From: Escherichia phage teqdroes
Sequence record: NC_054932.1
Length of the DNA: 64,000 nt
Reading direction: 5' to 3' (one strand)
The notes beneath the pieces are model-generated. The model saw nothing but the letters and a program-made list of their open reading frames with translations. It was not told the origin of the DNA and searched no databases. Below are positions 3,730 to 57,637 of the stretch, piece by piece; positions within the stretch are counted from its first letter, which is position 1, and each line of letters starts with the position of its first letter. A program made the position numbers and the translations under genes.

Positions 3730-5787
3730 ATGGAACTTATTACAGAATTATTTGACGGCGCTTCGGCGCCGGTTGTTAACTTAAATCCTAAGCATAAAAT
3801 ACCTCAAATTTTTGCTATTCAAGCCGGCGAAGAAAGTGTGCTTCCTGGATTTAGATTTTGTACATACACCTCTGGCGGTGATACAAATAAAAACGTTAAG
3901 CCGGGCGATAAAATGATGCATATCGTAATGATAGGTGTCAACGAGAAATTATCGCTGGTTAAGCTTAGAAACTTGGGTGGAAATCCAATTGGCGTCATTA
4001 ATGCTGTTTTTGATACTGCTCTTCAAACAATGAAACAGTATAAAATCGACGCATGCCTATTCCGCGTACTAAAGAGTAAAACAAATGGCGCAGCTCGTCA
4101 AATGCAAGTTATTGCTGACCGTTTAGTACGTACTAAAGGAGCAGGTCGATATGTTCTCTTAAAGGAAATCTGGGACTATGATAAGAAATATGCATATATT
4201 ATGGTTTACCGTAAAAATGCCAATTTAGAAGACATTCCAGGTGTACCTCCTATTTCAACTGAGTTATTCACAAAAGTTGAATCAAAGGTTGGTGATGTTT
4301 ATGTAGACGTTAAAACAGGTAATGCTGTTCCTAAAGCTGTTGCTGTTGCTGCTTCTATTGCTTTAGAAAATGATAAGCGCACGGATCAAGCTGTTATTCA
4401 GAAAACTAAAATTAGTCGTCGATTAGCAGCACAAGCTCAATATTCTACTGTTGATGCTTCACTTCAGGGTGATAGCTTCGCCGCTAAGAAATATCAAGAG
4501 TTTGAATCTAAAGTTCCGGTATATAAAGCAGAAGGACCAATGAACTCCGGGGTTATCCAGATTGGTTCAAACTTCGGCAAAGGAGCTATCGGTGGTATGA
4601 GAAGTGCTTCTCGTTTTAAATCTAGTGATTATGAACTAGAAAGCTTCCGAAATCATATTGCATTAGCCCATGCACGTTTACGTGATCCATCTATCAAGTT
4701 GCAGAGCGATATAACATATCAAGGTTCTCAAGAATATTTAAAGAATAAAGAATTCTTTGATTATAAAACTGATAAAATTTTAAGCGATCTTGCTGACATT
4801 AATATTTCTAATAGCTTTGATGTTATTAAGAAAATTATTAATGATTTAGTTAAAGGTTCTAAAGCTACGCCAGATGAAAAGACAGCTATTATTCAATTTG
4901 TCATGAATGGCATTTATAAATTGATTAATGAATCTGCTGCCCAGGCATATGAATACGCAAGCACCGAAGTAACTCCAAAAGGATTAACCCAAGCTGAATC
5001 TGATGTAATTGAAGATTATTGTGCAGATTCATATGTTGAAATGAACTCGTTCCTTTTGGGTAAACCAGATTCTACCCGTGAAGAATATATGGAACGAGCT
5101 ATTAAGCACATCGAGACGTTGGATTCTGCCTTTGCCAAAGGATCAGTTCTTCCTCCAGGAACTACACTTTACCGTGGACAAGAAGTTACCTTTAAAACTT
5201 TGCGTCATAACATTGAAAACAAAATGTTCTATTTCAAGAACTTCGTATCGACATCACTTAAACCAAATATCTTCGGTGAGCATGGTAAAAACTATATGGC
5301 TCTAGATGATTCCGGCGCAGTATTTTCTGGCGAAGGAGAAGGTTCCGTTGATGCAGAAGATTTAATGCATATGGGTAGTCATTCTACATATGCCATTGAA
5401 GATGCTGAAACTAGCGTGGGTATGGTAATTAAAGGAGCTGAGCGAATCAAAGTTATCGTTCCAGGTCATTTATCAGGATTTCCATCAGAAGCTGAAGTTA
5501 TTCTACCGCGTGGAATTTTACTGAAGATTAATAAAGTAAGTACGTACTTTATGAAAGAAACTGCTTATAACAAGTATCTAATCGAAGGTACAATCGTTCC
5601 TCCTTCTGAACAATTAGAAGAATCAGTATATGATGGCGACCATTTAATGGAAACTGGTGAAGTTCGTCCAATGGCTGGATTTAATCAATTCCTTGTAGAA
5701 GAATCAAAAGAAGAGGAAAACGAAGTTTCTCAAATCTTGGCTTCTTTGGTTAACATCAACGGAATGTCTAAAAAGTTCAAGATGTAG
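3730..5787 (+). CDS. Alt-type mono-ADP-ribosyltransferase, copy 2 (paralog)
   Basis: 685-aa ORF 3 nt after copy 1; same N-terminal 240 aa and same ART motifs (YRGQ, NFVSTSL, EAEVILPRG), divergent centre. Confidence 0.75.
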   Translation: MELITELFDGASAPVVNLNPKHKIPQIFAIQAGEESVLPGFRFCTYTSGGDTNKNVKPGDKMMHIVMIGVNEKLSLVKLRNLGGNPIGVINAVFDTALQTMKQYKIDACLFRVLKSKTNGAARQMQVIADRLVRTKGAGRYVLLKEIWDYDKKYAYIMVYRKNANLEDIPGVPPISTELFTKVESKVGDVYVDVKTGNAVPKAVAVAASIALENDKRTDQAVIQKTKISRRLAAQAQYSTVDASLQGDSFAAKKYQEFESKVPVYKAEGPMNSGVIQIGSNFGKGAIGGMRSASRFKSSDYELESFRNHIALAHARLRDPSIKLQSDITYQGSQEYLKNKEFFDYKTDKILSDLADINISNSFDVIKKIINDLVKGSKATPDEKTAIIQFVMNGIYKLINESAAQAYEYASTEVTPKGLTQAESDVIEDYCADSYVEMNSFLLGKPDSTREEYMERAIKHIETLDSAFAKGSVLPPGTTLYRGQEVTFKTLRHNIENKMFYFKNFVSTSLKPNIFGEHGKNYMALDDSGAVFSGEGEGSVDAEDLMHMGSHSTYAIEDAETSVGMVIKGAERIKVIVPGHLSGFPSEAEVILPRGILLKINKVSTYFMKETAYNKYLIEGTIVPPSEQLEESVYDGDHLMETGEVRPMAGFNQFLVEESKEEENEVSQILASLVNINGMSKKFKM

Positions 5788-54778: not shown

Positions 54779-54851
54779 TGGGAATTAGCCAAGTTGGTAA
54801 GGCACTGGATTTTGATTCCAGGATGCAAAGGTTCGAGTCCTTTATTCCCAG
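54779..54851 (+). tRNA. tRNA-Gln (anticodon TTG)
   Basis: Cloverleaf by eye: acceptor TGGGAAT/ATTCCCA, T-loop TTCGAGT, anticodon loop TTTTGAT. Confidence 0.8.
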
Positions 54852-54852
54852 C

Positions 54853-54939
54853 GCGAGAATGGTCAAATTGGTAAAGGCACAGCACTTAAAATGCTGCGGA
54901 ATGATTTCCTTGTGGGTTCGAGTCCCACTTCTCGCACCA
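54853..54939 (+). tRNA. tRNA-Leu (anticodon TAA)
   Basis: Acceptor GCGAGAA/TTCTCGC, long variable arm, T-loop TTCGAGT, CCA encoded. Confidence 0.8.
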
Positions 54940-54944
54940 AATTT

Positions 54945-55018
<74 letters not shown>

Positions 55019-55022
55019 ATTT

Positions 55023-55673
55023 ATGACTCGTCGTGAGACGCTCAGTTCTTTATTAGGGACTGATATGCATTTTTATCTTTATAAAATAACAAATAAAATT
55101 AATAATAAAATTTATATTGGTGTGCATTCTACCGAAAATTTAGATGATGGATATATGGGTTCTGGTAAATTATTAAAAAGAGCCCAAGACAAGTATGGTA
55201 TAGAAAATTTCTCTAAAGAAATATTAGAGTATTTTGATGATAAAGAATCTATGCTTGAAGCCGAGAAAAATATTGTCACAGAAGAGTTTTTAAATAGACC
55301 AGATGTGTATAATTTAAAACTTGGCGGAGAAGGTGGATGGGACCATATAAATAATTATCCTATGACAGATCAGCAACGCGAATTAATTTCATTGGGTGTT
55401 AAAAAGGCACATTCTAACGGAAAATTAAAAGGATGGTCTTCAAATGGATTAATGAAGAATGGCTTTGCTGGTAAAAATCATTCTCAAGAAGCTAAACGTA
55501 AAATAGCAAAAGCAAACGAAGCAAAAGTTTCTGCGGATGAAAGAAAAAGAAGAATAGAAATTTCTAAATTATATGATTTTTCTAAGCGTGGTGAATTATC
55601 TAAATATGCTAAGCATATTGGCGTAAGTCATACTCAAGCAAAAAGAATTCTAAATCAAATTAACAATATATAA
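55023..55673 (+). CDS. segB: GIY-YIG homing endonuclease
   Basis: GIY..YIG motif (FYLYKITNKINNKIYIGVHS); inserted in tRNA cluster as T4 segB; start may be ATG 55065. Confidence 0.8.
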   Translation: MTRRETLSSLLGTDMHFYLYKITNKINNKIYIGVHSTENLDDGYMGSGKLLKRAQDKYGIENFSKEILEYFDDKESMLEAEKNIVTEEFLNRPDVYNLKLGGEGGWDHINNYPMTDQQRELISLGVKKAHSNGKLKGWSSNGLMKNGFAGKNHSQEAKRKIAKANEAKVSADERKRRIEISKLYDFSKRGELSKYAKHIGVSHTQAKRILNQINNI

Positions 55674-55680
55674 ATATTTG

Positions 55681-55770
55681 GAGGCGTGGCAGAGTGGTTT
55701 AATGCACCGGTCTTGAAAACCGGCAGTCGCTCCGGCGACTCATAGGTTCAAATCCTATCGCCTCCGCCAG
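55681..55770 (+). tRNA. tRNA-Ser (anticodon TGA)
   Basis: Acceptor GGAGGCG/CGCCTCC, long variable arm, T-loop TTCAAAT, CCA. Confidence 0.8.
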
Positions 55771-55776
55771 TTTTTG

Positions 55777-55852
55777 CTGATTTAGCTCAGTAGGTAGAGC
55801 ACCTCACTTGTAATGAGGACGTCGGCGGTTCGATTCCGTCAATCAGCACCAA
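55777..55852 (+). tRNA. tRNA-Thr (anticodon TGT)
   Basis: Acceptor GCTGATT/AATCAGC, anticodon loop CTTGTAA, T-loop TTCGATT, CCA. Confidence 0.8.
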
Positions 55853-55853
55853 G

Positions 55854-55928
55854 GCCCTGTAGCTGGAAGGTTCAAGCAAGCGACTCATAATCGCCAGATG
55901 GTGGTTCAATTCCACCCAGGGCCACCAA
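55854..55928 (+). tRNA. tRNA-Ile (anticodon CAT; Ile2-type, could be Met)
   Basis: Acceptor GGCCCTG/CAGGGCC, anticodon loop CTCATAA, T-loop TTCAATT, CCA. Confidence 0.7.
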
Positions 55929-55940
55929 ATTATGAATTAG

Positions 55941-56027
55941 GGGAGTTATCCCGTAGAGGTAGCGGTGTGGACTGTAAATTCATTGTCATTGCGACTCGGG
56001 TGGTTCGACTCCACCACTCCCCACCAA
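55941..56027 (+). tRNA. tRNA-Tyr (anticodon GTA), class II
   Basis: Acceptor GGGGAGT/ACTCCCC, loop CTGTAAA, long variable arm resembling E. coli tRNA-Tyr, T-loop TTCGACT; anticodon stem has two G-U pairs. Confidence 0.6.
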
Positions 56028-56031
56028 TTTG

Positions 56032-56106
56032 GATGTGTAGCTCAATGGTAGAGCGATCGCCTGTTAAGCGATTGGTTATAGGTTCGAATCCTATCACGTC
56101 CGCCAA
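56032..56106 (+). tRNA. tRNA-Asn (anticodon GTT)
   Basis: Acceptor GGATGTG/CACGTCC (one G-U), loop CTGTTAA, T-loop TTCGAAT, CCA. Confidence 0.7.
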
Positions 56107-56219
56107 ATTTGTGACAACTGTCACATTAATATCTACTTGACGCGATTATAGGGGTTGAACTGATCACTCTTCTCTTAATTTCGTGTGAAGACATCTTGAT
56201 TGTTGGAGTAGGTATTAAT

Positions 56220-56295
56220 GTGGCCGTAGTTCAGTTGGTAGAACTCGAGATTGTGATTCTCGTAGTCATGGGTTCGACTCCCATCGGTCACCCCA
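56220..56295 (+). tRNA. tRNA-His (anticodon GTG)
   Basis: Acceptor GTGGCCG/CGGTCAC, loop TTGTGAT, T-loop TTCGACT, CCA; no encoded G-1. Confidence 0.65.
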
Positions 56296-56299
56296 ATTA

Positions 56300-56375
56300 C
56301 GGGGCATAGCTCAGAAGGAAGAGCAAGGACCTTCTAAGTCCTAGGTCGTAGGTTCGATCCCTACTGCCTCGACCA
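56300..56375 (+). tRNA. tRNA-Arg (anticodon TCT)
   Basis: Acceptor CGGGGCA/TGCCTCG, loop CTTCTAA, T-loop TTCGATC, CCA. Confidence 0.75.
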
Positions 56376-56393: not shown

Positions 56394-56744
56394 ATGAAAG
56401 GTAATGTTTATTTAGTAGTTCATGATTTAACATTTTACTTCAATGAATATGAAAAACATATCTCATTTCGTGAAATTAATTTACTTTATCAACACGCGGA
56501 TTATATTTATATTCAAAACGAATTTGGTCATTGGCAATTTCTCAAAAATCGTTCATTTGGCTTAGATGGTTACGAATACTTTGAACGTAAAGACCTTTTA
56601 GATAAAATTCCGTTATCTACGCAATATCAAAATCACAAATCTTTATATAAATGCCGTCCAATTCGAAATGTTGAATCCGCGTATGAAGCAATTGATTTAT
56701 GGCGTGAACGCCGTAAACAGATTGATGCTTTAAAAGAATATTAA
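56394..56744 (+). CDS. hypothetical protein (116 aa)
   Basis: ORF 18 nt after tRNA-Arg with GAGG RBS. Confidence 0.5.
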   Translation: MKGNVYLVVHDLTFYFNEYEKHISFREINLLYQHADYIYIQNEFGHWQFLKNRSFGLDGYEYFERKDLLDKIPLSTQYQNHKSLYKCRPIRNVESAYEAIDLWRERRKQIDALKEY

Positions 56745-56749
56745 GAAAC

Positions 56750-57081
56750 CGGGTCGCTACCGGTAAGTCGTCGGACTGATGTTCCCTGAGTAAGGAATTG
56801 CGTTAATAATCTTTGCGTTTATTGATGCCCTCTTACATCACAGCAGAAACGGCGCACCGAATTATCGATTCGAGGAAATATCTTTGCCGTAAGCCGAGTA
56901 GCGTTTTTGACGGAACGTTCGGATATGGTCGAGATATGGCCTTTTAAAAATATTGAGTAGCGTCAACTGCTTAATAACCGGGTTCGAATCCCGGCGTTTC
57001 GTACAAACACTTGCCTTAGCAGGTGGAACCCCGACAAGGTTGCCGCAAGGCTTAGCCCCGACCGAAAGGTTGGGGCTTTTT
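56750..57081 (+). ncRNA. putative stable structured RNA locus (tRNA-like T-arm; possible species 1/2-type RNAs)
   Basis: About 330 nt with no plus-strand ORF, higher GC, tRNA-like element CCGGG-TTCGAAT-CCCGG, ends in GNRA-hairpin terminator. Confidence 0.3.
57054..57081 (+). terminator. rho-independent terminator (GNRA hairpin plus T5)
   Basis: AGCCCCGACC-GAAA-GGTTGGGGCT then TTTTT. Confidence 0.65.
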
Positions 57082-57083
57082 GG

Positions 57084-57091
57084 TATAAATA
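57084..57091 (+). promoter_or_regulatory. late promoter TATAAATA for the 57128 CTS protein
   Basis: Exact motif 37 nt upstream of ATG, immediately after terminator. Confidence 0.5.
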
Positions 57092-57127
57092 AGTATATTA
57101 AAACCACGAATTAAAACAGGAAATAAG

Positions 57128-57601
57128 ATGAAATCATATGCTCAATTTTTAAATGAAGCGGTGTTAAATGAAGCATCTAGCACCGAAATTCAAGCTGTCG
57201 CAAAAGCAGCCATTGCCGCGGGTAAATATTCCTATAAAGATGCTTCCGATGAATCACGATTCCAATTTGCTCGTGATATGAAAGCCGAAGGATTTACAGG
57301 GAATGCAGTTAGTATGGCCTGGAAAAGTTTAGTTGCTACTGGCGCTGCTTTTGCAAAGGCTTCAGGTAAACCTGCTCCTAAAGCAGATCCTAAAGCTACA
57401 CAAGAAAAAAATATTGTTAAAGGAATTATCTCCAAATATGAAGCTATCCTTAAAGAGCTTTTAGTAATCAAAACTGAAGGTCAAAAGTTAGCTCGTGCTT
57501 ATAGTTTCAAAGATAACCCACATGCTCACTCTCTTGAGTATGTTGAAGACATCCAAAAAATTATTAAAGACCGCATTTGGTCTGCTAAACAAATCAAATA
57601 A
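57128..57601 (+). CDS. internal-protein-like protein with CTS (157 aa)
   Basis: N-terminus MKSYAQFLNEA resembles capsid-targeting sequence; TATAAATA late promoter upstream; terminator downstream. Confidence 0.55.
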   Translation: MKSYAQFLNEAVLNEASSTEIQAVAKAAIAAGKYSYKDASDESRFQFARDMKAEGFTGNAVSMAWKSLVATGAAFAKASGKPAPKADPKATQEKNIVKGIISKYEAILKELLVIKTEGQKLARAYSFKDNPHAHSLEYVEDIQKIIKDRIWSAKQIK

Positions 57602-57608
57602 CATTCTT

Positions 57609-57637
57609 AGTCCCAACCGAAAGGTTGGGACTTTTTG
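57609..57637 (+). terminator. rho-independent terminator, near-copy of 57054 module
   Basis: AGTCCCAACC-GAAA-GGTTGGGACT then TTTTT. Confidence 0.65.

Follow-up and report, generated by a model that had tools for sequence, protein, structure and literature searches.

What is encoded by the DNA behind the tRNA genes of a T4-like phage, when it carries a tRNA-like T arm and seems to hold neither a tRNA nor a protein-coding gene? This question is raised by a locus of Escherichia phage teqdroes (NC_054932.1), of which a stretch of 64,000 nucleotides, hereafter referred to as the window, was analysed. The tRNA cluster of the window occupies positions 54779-56375 of the plus strand and consists of ten tRNAs according to ARAGORN, nine of which were confirmed by the Rfam tRNA model. 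Further downstream, the GC content reaches 0.44 across positions 56700-57150 compared to 0.29-0.36 in the flanking coding DNA, in line with the GC-richer segment described in an earlier note on this DNA.

The same note had suggested that the segment could be the counterpart of two stable small RNAs of T4. A blastn search with positions 56700-57100 against phage records yielded 805 matches, which included T4 (X03016) and RB59; the matched DNA carries the labels 'species 2 RNA', 'species 1 RNA' and 'pot. terminator' in the former and rnaD and rnaC in the latter. The coordinates of rnaD and rnaC in the window were obtained by mapping the X03016 features (species 2: 4615-4734; species 1: 4741-4877) by alignment (Table 1). 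Identity to T4 amounts to 116 of 120 aligned columns for rnaD, 135 of 137 for rnaC and 79 of 81 for positions 57003-57083, and a template oligonucleotide of the RNAC Northern probe, one of two given in PMC9697503, matches rnaC of the window at all 58 of its 58 positions. The blastn matches, the mapping and the oligonucleotide match show that the counterpart reading was correct; judged by its sequence, the region 56741-57085 corresponds, as an orthologue in a Tequatrovirus, to the rnaD-rnaC locus of T4. The match to species 2 and species 1 RNA means that the feature was already known, and since the genes have long been known, their rediscovery is not news; the covariation-backed structure of rnaC, in contrast, is new. 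Taken as a whole, the locus very probably encodes two stable non-coding RNAs, which are transcribed as the last part of the tRNA operon, ahead of an intrinsic terminator, with rnaC adopting the fold described below and being matured in a tRNA-like manner. In T4, RNAC and RNAD were confirmed by Northern blots as late-accumulating RNAs in the transcriptome paper of 2022 (PMC9697503). The function of both RNAs was stated to be unknown in a review of 2010 (PMC3014915), in the 2022 study (PMC9697503) and again in 2025 (PMC12685909).

The locus is composed of rnaD (119 nt), a spacer of 6 nt, rnaC (137 nt) and a trailer and terminator region of about 80 nt. An untranslated segment of about 330 nt had been placed at 56745-57090 as a single unit; such a segment is present, but it starts at about position 56741, where the beginning of rnaD overlaps the TAA stop codon of a 116-amino-acid ORF, and it comprises two RNA genes rather than one RNA. 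This ORF (phrog_3355, unknown function) lies between tRNA-Arg and rnaD, whereas in T4 rnaD directly abuts tRNA-Arg. The window further differs from T4 by an additional gene cassette with a late promoter (57128-57601, phrog_2280), which is located between two copies of the terminator. A spacer of the AAYWAW type, as found between rnaD and rnaC, is also present between the CCA of the upstream tRNA and rnaC in other genera.

Table 1. Features of the rnaD-rnaC locus and of the tRNA-His leader; positions are those of the window
Feature	Position	Strand	Remarks
Perfect palindrome GTGACAACTGTCAC	56111-56124	+	only GTCAC (56120-56124) lies in the conserved leader
Structured tRNA-His leader	56120-56219	+	predicted closing helix 56120-56138 x 56206-56224, 19 bp
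rnaD (T4 species 2 RNA orthologue)	56741-56859	+	119 nt; first 4 nt overlap the TAA of the 116-aa ORF
rnaD 5' hairpin ACCGG-GUCGCUA-CCGGU	56748-56764	+	predicted by RNAalifold from 13 sequences; closing pair A-U changes to G-C
rnaD long-range helix, 5' strand GUCGUCG	56767-56773	+	predicted to pair with 56850-56857
Small ORF, 44 aa	56813-56947	+	TTG start; spans the rnaD/rnaC spacer
rnaD long-range helix, 3' strand CGGCGCAC	56850-56857	+	one bulged C; near the 3' end of the RNA
rnaD/rnaC spacer	56860-56865	+	AAUUAU, 6 nt
Small ORF, 81 aa	56862-57107	-	no PHROG match
rnaC (T4 species 1 RNA orthologue)	56866-57002	+	137 nt; tRNA-shaped four-way junction
rnaC acceptor stem, 5' strand CGAUUCG	56866-56872	+	pairs with 56995-57001; 4 of 7 pairs compensatory
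rnaC long arm P2-P5	56873-56942	+	D-arm position; both main helices compensatory at every pair
rnaC long-arm tip UUGACG	56907-56912	+	5' half of the predicted kissing-loop pseudoknot; pairs with 56961-56966
rnaC hairpin P6	56951-56976	+	10 bp; anticodon/variable-arm position; 8 of 10 pairs compensatory
Small ORF, 53 aa	56953-57114	+	TTG start; runs through the terminator hairpin and late promoter
rnaC P6 loop CGUCAA	56961-56966	+	other half of the predicted kissing-loop pseudoknot; complementary to UUGACG
rnaC T arm CCGGG-UUCGAAU-CCCGG	56978-56994	+	5-bp stem, 7-nt loop
rnaC acceptor stem, 3' strand CGUUUCG, and discriminator U57002	56995-57002	+	invariant U
3' trailer	57003-57053	+	7-bp hairpin CACUUGC/GCAGGUG (~57008-57025) and GCAA-loop hairpin
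Intrinsic terminator AGCCCCGACC-GAAA-GGUUGGGGCU, then UUUUU	57054-57082	+	'pot. terminator' in X03016
TATAAATA, T4-type late promoter box for the gene that follows	57084-57091	+	feature boundary, outside the RNAs

The structure of rnaC was derived from an alignment of 23 distinct sequences taken from GenBank phages and IMG/VR (an earlier set contained 18), which cover nine genera of the Tevenvirinae, namely Tequatrovirus, Mosigvirus, Karamvirus, Kanagawavirus, Winklervirus, Tegunavirus, Gelderlandvirus, Mosugukvirus and Jiaodavirus. In the consensus, the 7-bp acceptor stem is followed by the long arm of around 60 nt, an A/U-rich linker of 9 to 10 nt, the hairpin P6, a single nucleotide and the T arm. 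Standard pairs account for 93.8% of the paired cells of the alignment, and compensatory changes were found for 34 of the 50 pairs. This count was equalled in none of 500 shuffles, and controls in which the 3' partners were moved by one to three columns reached at most 16 compensatory pairs. The minimum free energy (MFE) fold of rnaC of the window is the same as the fold derived from covariation (z = -4.42). A covariance model, R1, detects rnaC as the sole significant match in the window (155.2 bits, E = 6e-33), the window sequence having been part of the training set of this model. The rnaC of the Jiaodavirus Mineola was not in the training set and was found by the covariance model alone with 73 bits; its 7-bp acceptor stem is perfectly paired, and its MFE structure shows the same four-way architecture.

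At the fourth and fifth pair of the rnaC acceptor stem, 18 of the 23 sequences have a tandem U.U mismatch, and the lineages of TG1, PM2 and Mineola have Watson-Crick pairs; the third pair of the T stem occurs as G-C, U-A, A-U, C-G or U-G. The T-arm-like motif CCGGG-TTCGAAT-CCCGG, which had drawn attention to the segment in the first place, is located at 56978-56994, where it forms the T arm within the acceptor/T-arm module of rnaC, a module supported by covariation. Its sequence CCGGGTTCGAATCCCGG is unique in the window, and no match was obtained in 100 shuffles even if two mismatches were allowed. Most homologs have a T loop similar to UUCGAAU; in Kanagawavirus and Winklervirus, the loop reads UGCAUGC or UGCAUCC. 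These two genera no longer have the canonical T loop, and with the U.U mismatches of the acceptor stem this means that the standard tRNA enzymes need not recognize rnaC. The length of rnaC remains at 137 to 141 nt everywhere, despite the replacement of the long-arm sequence in VPA32, Melville and PM2. The P6 hairpin had already been labelled 'pot. stem-loop structure' in X03016. An alternative 3' strand of the acceptor stem, the internal CGGAACG that corresponds to a weak tRNA-Sec-like register, was rejected; it shows an anti-compensatory change in Karamvirus, while the 5' strand CGAUUCG covaries.

The tip of the long arm and the loop of P6 are complementary to each other, and the pairing UUGACG x CGUCAA is possible in 99.3% of the cells. 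The motif is kept in lineages in which the long arm is otherwise replaced. In the TG1 lineage, the two loops read UUGAUG and CAUCAA, and in Mineola, they read UUGCAG and CUGCAA, which means that two adjacent pairs have changed and that both are compensated. The predicted loop-loop interaction of rnaC is thus well supported for a computational result. A kissing loop of this kind would close the two lower arms of rnaC into a ring, thereby leaving the minihelix of acceptor stem and T arm as the exposed surface.

The ends of rnaC are informative with respect to its possible maturation. The species 1 feature of X03016 starts with the first base of the acceptor stem and ends with the discriminator base. 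No CCA is encoded 3' of rnaC in the window, where the sequence reads UACA; PM2 is the exception with UCCA. In other genera, rnaC begins 6 nt 3' of the CCA of a tRNA, and the next tRNA follows immediately downstream. RNase P, the nucleases that trim 3' ends and the CCA-adding enzyme recognize acceptor/T-arm architectures of this type, which is why a tRNA-type maturation is inferred for rnaC. Host RNase P would cut directly before C56866, 3' trimming would remove the trailer as far as U57002, and the CCA, as it is not encoded, would be put on post-transcriptionally. Addition of CCA to 137 nt would give 140 nt, the published size of the T4 RNA, and processing of the T4 RNAs by RNase P and RNase III is reportedly described in the old literature. 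The proposed pathway of RNase P cleavage, 3' trimming and CCA addition draws on the structure, the annotated T4 ends and general tRNA biology. The mature rnaC of around 140 nt would present the minihelix of acceptor stem and T arm and would be incapable of decoding.

The trailer between rnaC and the terminator is predicted to be structured (z = -3.79) and is kept in JS98, a phage without rnaC. The hairpin with a GNRA loop and a run of T residues, which the earlier note had seen at the end of the segment, is a 10-bp stem (57054-57077) with seven GC pairs and a GAAA loop that is directly followed by TTTTT, as expected for a Rho-independent terminator. The late promoter that had been placed at 57084 is likewise present.

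rnaD seems to be a separate structured RNA module, which combines a hairpin at the 5' end with a long-range helix close to the 3' end and a swappable middle. In 13 diverse sequences, the first 45 nt and the last 25 nt are invariant, and at least three unrelated versions of the middle part occur. The inner helices covary where the middle part has been swapped; the long-range helix is without covariation support because the sequence of rnaD is invariant there. In the consensus fold, 98% of the cells are paired and most pairs are invariant; the five compensatory pairs were equalled by 72 of 500 shuffles, and the MFE structure of the single sequence has a z-score of -1.55. The predicted fold of rnaD is therefore weakly supported. 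The encoded 3' end reads CCA in T4, CCG in the window and CAG or AAG elsewhere. Matches to rnaD were found in 734 phage records. In Karamvirus and Jiaodavirus, a 5' domain homologous to that of rnaD is located directly after tRNA-Asn, where it starts a longer spacer element of about 240 nt that contains a different covarying hairpin, followed by AAGUCGUCGG, UCCCUG and ACGGCG. In a T4-like phage adapted to semi-permissive E. coli, one convergent SNP arose in each of the three lines, and this SNP is located in rnaD (PMC12685909), which is a published hint that the locus has a role in host interaction.

A second candidate for a stable RNA had been seen in the gap between tRNA-Asn and tRNA-His. 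The perfect palindrome noticed there, GTGACAACTGTCAC, is present at 56111-56124; its 5' half is specific to the lineage of the window, and its 3' half, GTCAC, is conserved. The suggestion was only partly right: most of the gap is a conserved structured element, but one that has no homology to rnaC or rnaD. The region from approximately 56118 to 56219 accompanies tRNA-His in at least six genera. It constitutes the spacer between tRNA-Gln and tRNA-His in Karamvirus, Gelderlandvirus, Jiaodavirus, Mosugukvirus and Winklervirus, where its conservation amounts to 77-89%. In T2 and Sf24, tRNA-Asn abuts tRNA-Arg, and the window adds the leader and tRNA-His as one module. The closing helix of the predicted leader fold takes in the first five nucleotides of tRNA-His (G-1 to C4) and encloses two hairpins. 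Among eight sequences, 97.2% of the cells are paired and seven pairs are compensatory, a count that was equalled by none of 500 shuffles; the z-score of the MFE structure is -6.01. Several pairs of the leader are G.U on the plus strand, which favours a constraint at the RNA level over one at the DNA level. Our best guess is that the leader would act as a processing stem of the tRNA-His precursor and possibly contains an RNase III site. The closing helix comprises 19 predicted bp, which partly covary, compared to the near-perfect duplex of around 20 bp (about two turns) that is the norm for RNase III stems. It is less likely that the leader is another stable spacer RNA. Two further candidates were rejected in this region. 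A 37-amino-acid ORF (56196-56309) has an SD-like GAAGG and an ATG start codon in relatives; it reads through tRNA-His and starts with TTG in the window. A pairing in trans between the rnaC loop GCGUCAA and UUGACGC of the leader was dropped because PM2, Mineola and LC53 do not share this motif of the leader.

The distribution of the two RNA genes was analysed across phages and cellular genomes. DNA of the rnaC type was found in about 760 + 138 phage records (approximately 900), which belong to nine genera. In JS98 and other members of the genus Dhakavirus, the trailer directly follows rnaD and rnaC is precisely missing, and in most other genera rnaC is present but a full rnaD is not; the two genes thus occur independently of one another. 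In Karamvirus, Gelderlandvirus, Winklervirus and Jiaodavirus, rnaC is located within tRNA arrays between different tRNAs, and its size as well as its junction and loop sequences are constant though the neighbours differ. A search of 185,579 bacterial and archaeal species genomes with an rnaC pattern of 24 specified bases gave no match, and neither did a blastn search of 5,426 complete E. coli genomes with the whole segment. The rnaC covariance model, run without filters, detected no rnaC homologue in the tRNA cluster of the Aeromonas phage 44RR; the weak matches obtained there (at most 18.9 bits) all fall on annotated tRNA genes and, in the two alignments shown, run via the acceptor stem and T arm. 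A long-arm pattern matched 21 loci on viral contigs, ten of which were new, and five of these ten were chance matches that were discarded after a search with the model. The 116-amino-acid ORF, used as a query to find diverse tRNA regions, returned only five close relatives. The modular distribution, the number of phage records and the lack of bacterial and 44RR counterparts in these searches favour the view that rnaD and rnaC are autonomous, selected RNA genes, which are restricted to enterobacterial Tevenvirinae. The comparative picture of rnaC and rnaD as a whole argues for autonomous genes under selection and against spacers.

What such genes might do has been sought for about 50 years, and the structure of rnaC provides mutational handles for this question: the top half of a tRNA, the kissing-loop body and the invariant U. 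We speculate that rnaC might be a non-decoding tRNA mimic, which engages a tRNA-binding protein via its minihelix of acceptor stem and T arm. The candidate partners would be a host nuclease or toxin directed against tRNAs, or an enzyme that processes or modifies them. This proposal is tentative and, though the likeliest of the functions considered, remains on the doubtful side. Unlikely, in our opinion, is a more specific version, according to which a CCA-ended minihelix on a body locked by the kissing loop would draw off a host factor that acts on tRNAs, for instance a defence nuclease, in the manner of a decoy or sponge, and rnaD would tune host compatibility. The role of rnaD may be host-related. 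Deletions of the T4 tRNA region are said to be viable, so any role would be conditional. If the decoy version is true, it would, along with the tRNA-His leader and further structured spacers, turn the tRNA arrays of T4-like phages into a reservoir of uncharacterised tRNA-shaped RNAs.

The main rival of the mimic proposal, which we consider an unlikely reading as well, is that the locus contains a module that acts in cis by guiding endonucleolytic cleavage of the polycistronic tRNA transcript during its processing and protecting its 3' end, the excised RNAs being stable by-products without a function in trans. The location of rnaD and rnaC in Tequatrovirus at the 3' end of the operon, beside the terminator, would fit such a role, and rnaD is always located directly 3' of a tRNA or an ORF. 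Moreover, other spacers of T4-like tRNA arrays also give terminally paired folds, and the tRNA-His leader resembles a processing stem. However, in four genera rnaC lies inside the tRNA array with unchanged size, junction and loops, and Dhakavirus manages without it. A compensated kissing loop is also hard to reconcile with a mere spacer.

Another hypothesis assumes that rnaC, rnaD or both are antisense sRNAs, which pair with mRNAs of the phage or the host. The label 'small regulatory RNAs', which has been given to them without evidence (PMC9697503, PMC12685909), points in this direction, as do conserved single-stranded stretches such as UUUUAAAAAU in rnaC and AAGAAA in rnaD. The most conserved loops of rnaC, however, pair with one another, and we regard an antisense function as improbable.

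It is very improbable that the RNAs are decayed, functionless remnants of tRNAs. The earlier note had named a decayed pseudo-tRNA without conserved structure as the outcome that would speak against a stable RNA, and it is true that rnaC retains only the acceptor stem and T arm of the tRNA arms, that neither ARAGORN nor the Rfam tRNA model calls a tRNA on it and that its acceptor stem contains U.U mismatches. For rnaC, this reading is contradicted by the covariation, with 34 of 50 pairs being compensatory at a constant length, by its conservation in around 900 phage records of nine genera, and by the reported detection of T4 RNAC on Northern blots (PMC9697503).

Least credence of all, hardly any, is given to the view that the small ORFs are real protein genes: many GenBank records annotate CDSs for a 'hypothetical protein' here and two of the ORFs have PHROGs families (phrog_24262 and phrog_28391), but the two plus-strand ORFs both start with TTG, the 53-amino-acid ORF extends across both terminator hairpin and late promoter, the 44-amino-acid ORF crosses the rnaD/rnaC spacer, the 81-amino-acid ORF on the minus strand has no counterpart in PHROGs, the frames cannot be conserved because the rnaC of Karamvirus has tRNAs within 6 nt, and the substitutions track RNA pairing rather than codons. 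The earlier statement that there is no credible plus-strand ORF thus needs a slight correction, as ORFs of 44 and 53 amino acids do exist, but it stands insofar as they are not credible genes. The annotation of rnaD/rnaC DNA as CDSs in many records and in two PHROG families is an error worth correcting.

Among known systems, rnaC of the window comes closest to the rnaC of T4, which likewise lies between rnaD on one side and the trailer and terminator on the other and has the same ends in X03016. The two differ by only two substitutions, one of which turns a U-A pair of P6 into U.G. With canonical tRNAs (RF00005), rnaC shares the 7-bp acceptor stem, the 5-bp T stem, the UUCGAAU loop, a single discriminator base, the four-way junction and the place in a tRNA operon; however, it is 137 nt long and lacks both a D arm and an anticodon arm with a 7-nt loop. 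ARAGORN detected neither a tRNA nor a tmRNA in the segment, and RF00005 gave no match over positions 56741-57002 even at E <= 10 (gathering threshold 29 bits), the sole Rfam match there at this cutoff being tRNA-Sec with 16.6 bits compared to a threshold of 47. The earlier note had looked to Rfam for an identification, which was not obtained: in searches of the window and five related loci, both at the gathering threshold and at E <= 10, only tRNAs were found and no family for rnaC, rnaD or the tRNA-His leader, and Rfam 15 has no family that matches rnaC or rnaD. YrlA (RF02553) is a non-decoding RNA with a tRNA-like module, which is sometimes encoded by phages; its model does not match rnaC or its homologs. 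The tRNA-like domain of tmRNA likewise places a module of acceptor stem and T arm on a larger RNA without an anticodon. In contrast to tmRNA, rnaC has no frame for a tag and no G3.U70 pair, its third acceptor pair being A-U or G-C, with G-U in PM2 only, and its body is formed by arms joined by the predicted kissing loop instead of pseudoknots around an ORF. In comparison with these known systems, rnaC would function like the upper half of a tRNA while being neither a tRNA nor a tmRNA itself.

Two TTG-start ORFs overlie rnaD/rnaC, the trailer and the terminator; their PHROG matches, phrog_24262 and phrog_28391, are both labelled 'unknown function', and a 'hypothetical protein' is annotated over the rnaD/rnaC stretch in many GenBank phage records. 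Both ORFs look like RNA genes which were wrongly annotated as proteins and carried on into the protein-family database. The 37-aa ORF that starts within the structured leader of tRNA-His is very probably a by-product of RNA constraints. At its start, relatives possess GAAGG with an ATG 4 nt on, whereas the window has TTG.

Features of the tRNA operon region and of related phage loci (L-handles, own coordinates)
Feature	Coordinates	Strand	Remarks
GIY-YIG homing endonuclease, SegB-like	55065-55673	+	phrog_314; between tRNA-Gly and tRNA-Ser
Late-promoter box	55669-55676	+	4 nt upstream of tRNA-Ser
tRNA-Tyr (GTA)	55940-56026	+	ARAGORN call
37-aa ORF	56196-56309	+	starts within His leader, reads through tRNA-His
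116-aa ORF	56394-56744	+	phrog_3355, 'unknown function'; between tRNA-Arg and rnaD
TTG-start ORF	56813-56947	+	over rnaD/rnaC region
TTG-start ORF	56953-57114	+	over rnaC/trailer/terminator region
Operon terminator, two copies	57054-57082; 57609-57637	+	
Late-promoter gene cassette, 157 aa	57128-57601		phrog_2280; flanked by the terminator copies
Asn-Asp spacers (~240 nt), Jiaodavirus and Karamvirus	L032 (Klebsiella phage Mineola) 852-1112; L003 430-680; L033 889-1144		
Extra element (~115 nt)	L003 1040-1152; also L005, L007		between tRNA-Gln and His leader

The Asn-Asp spacers of related tRNA arrays open with an rnaD-like domain, in which a covarying hairpin is followed by AAGUCGUCGG, UCCCUG and ACGGCG. 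On this evidence, blastn may understate the extent of the rnaD family. Two further spacers of the T4-like tRNA array in Mineola (L032 1675-1770 and 1856-1921) have multi-branched folds with paired termini and may represent additional tRNA-shaped spacer RNAs. In one, CCA comes after a terminal stem of 8 bp (z = -3.41); the terminal stem of the other is 9 bp long (z = -4.21). The element between tRNA-Gln and the His leader is conserved among Karamvirus and Gelderlandvirus loci and has no significant fold when taken alone (z = 0.20).

The box upstream of tRNA-Ser, TATAAATA, could drive late transcription of the subcluster from tRNA-Ser to tRNA-Arg, the 116-aa ORF, rnaD and rnaC, which would agree with the literature, where RNAC and RNAD are classed as late RNAs (PMC9697503). 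When the whole window was scanned with Rfam, tRNA-Tyr stayed below the gathering score for tRNAs. The TAA stop of the 116-aa ORF overlaps the first bases of rnaD, and Karamvirus likewise has a phrog_3355 member beside its tRNA array (L003 2337-2711). At the end of the operon, the terminator copies (AGCCCCGACCGAAAGGTTGGGGCT vs AGTCCCAACCGAAAGGTTGGGACT) are each followed by TTTTTGGTAT, and the enclosed cassette looks like a gene inserted through recombination at the terminator.

In comparison with T4, the window cluster lacks tRNA-Pro and contains tRNA-Tyr, tRNA-Asn and tRNA-His instead. T4 has nothing at the position of the 116-aa ORF, and the phrog_2280 cassette is likewise absent from T4.
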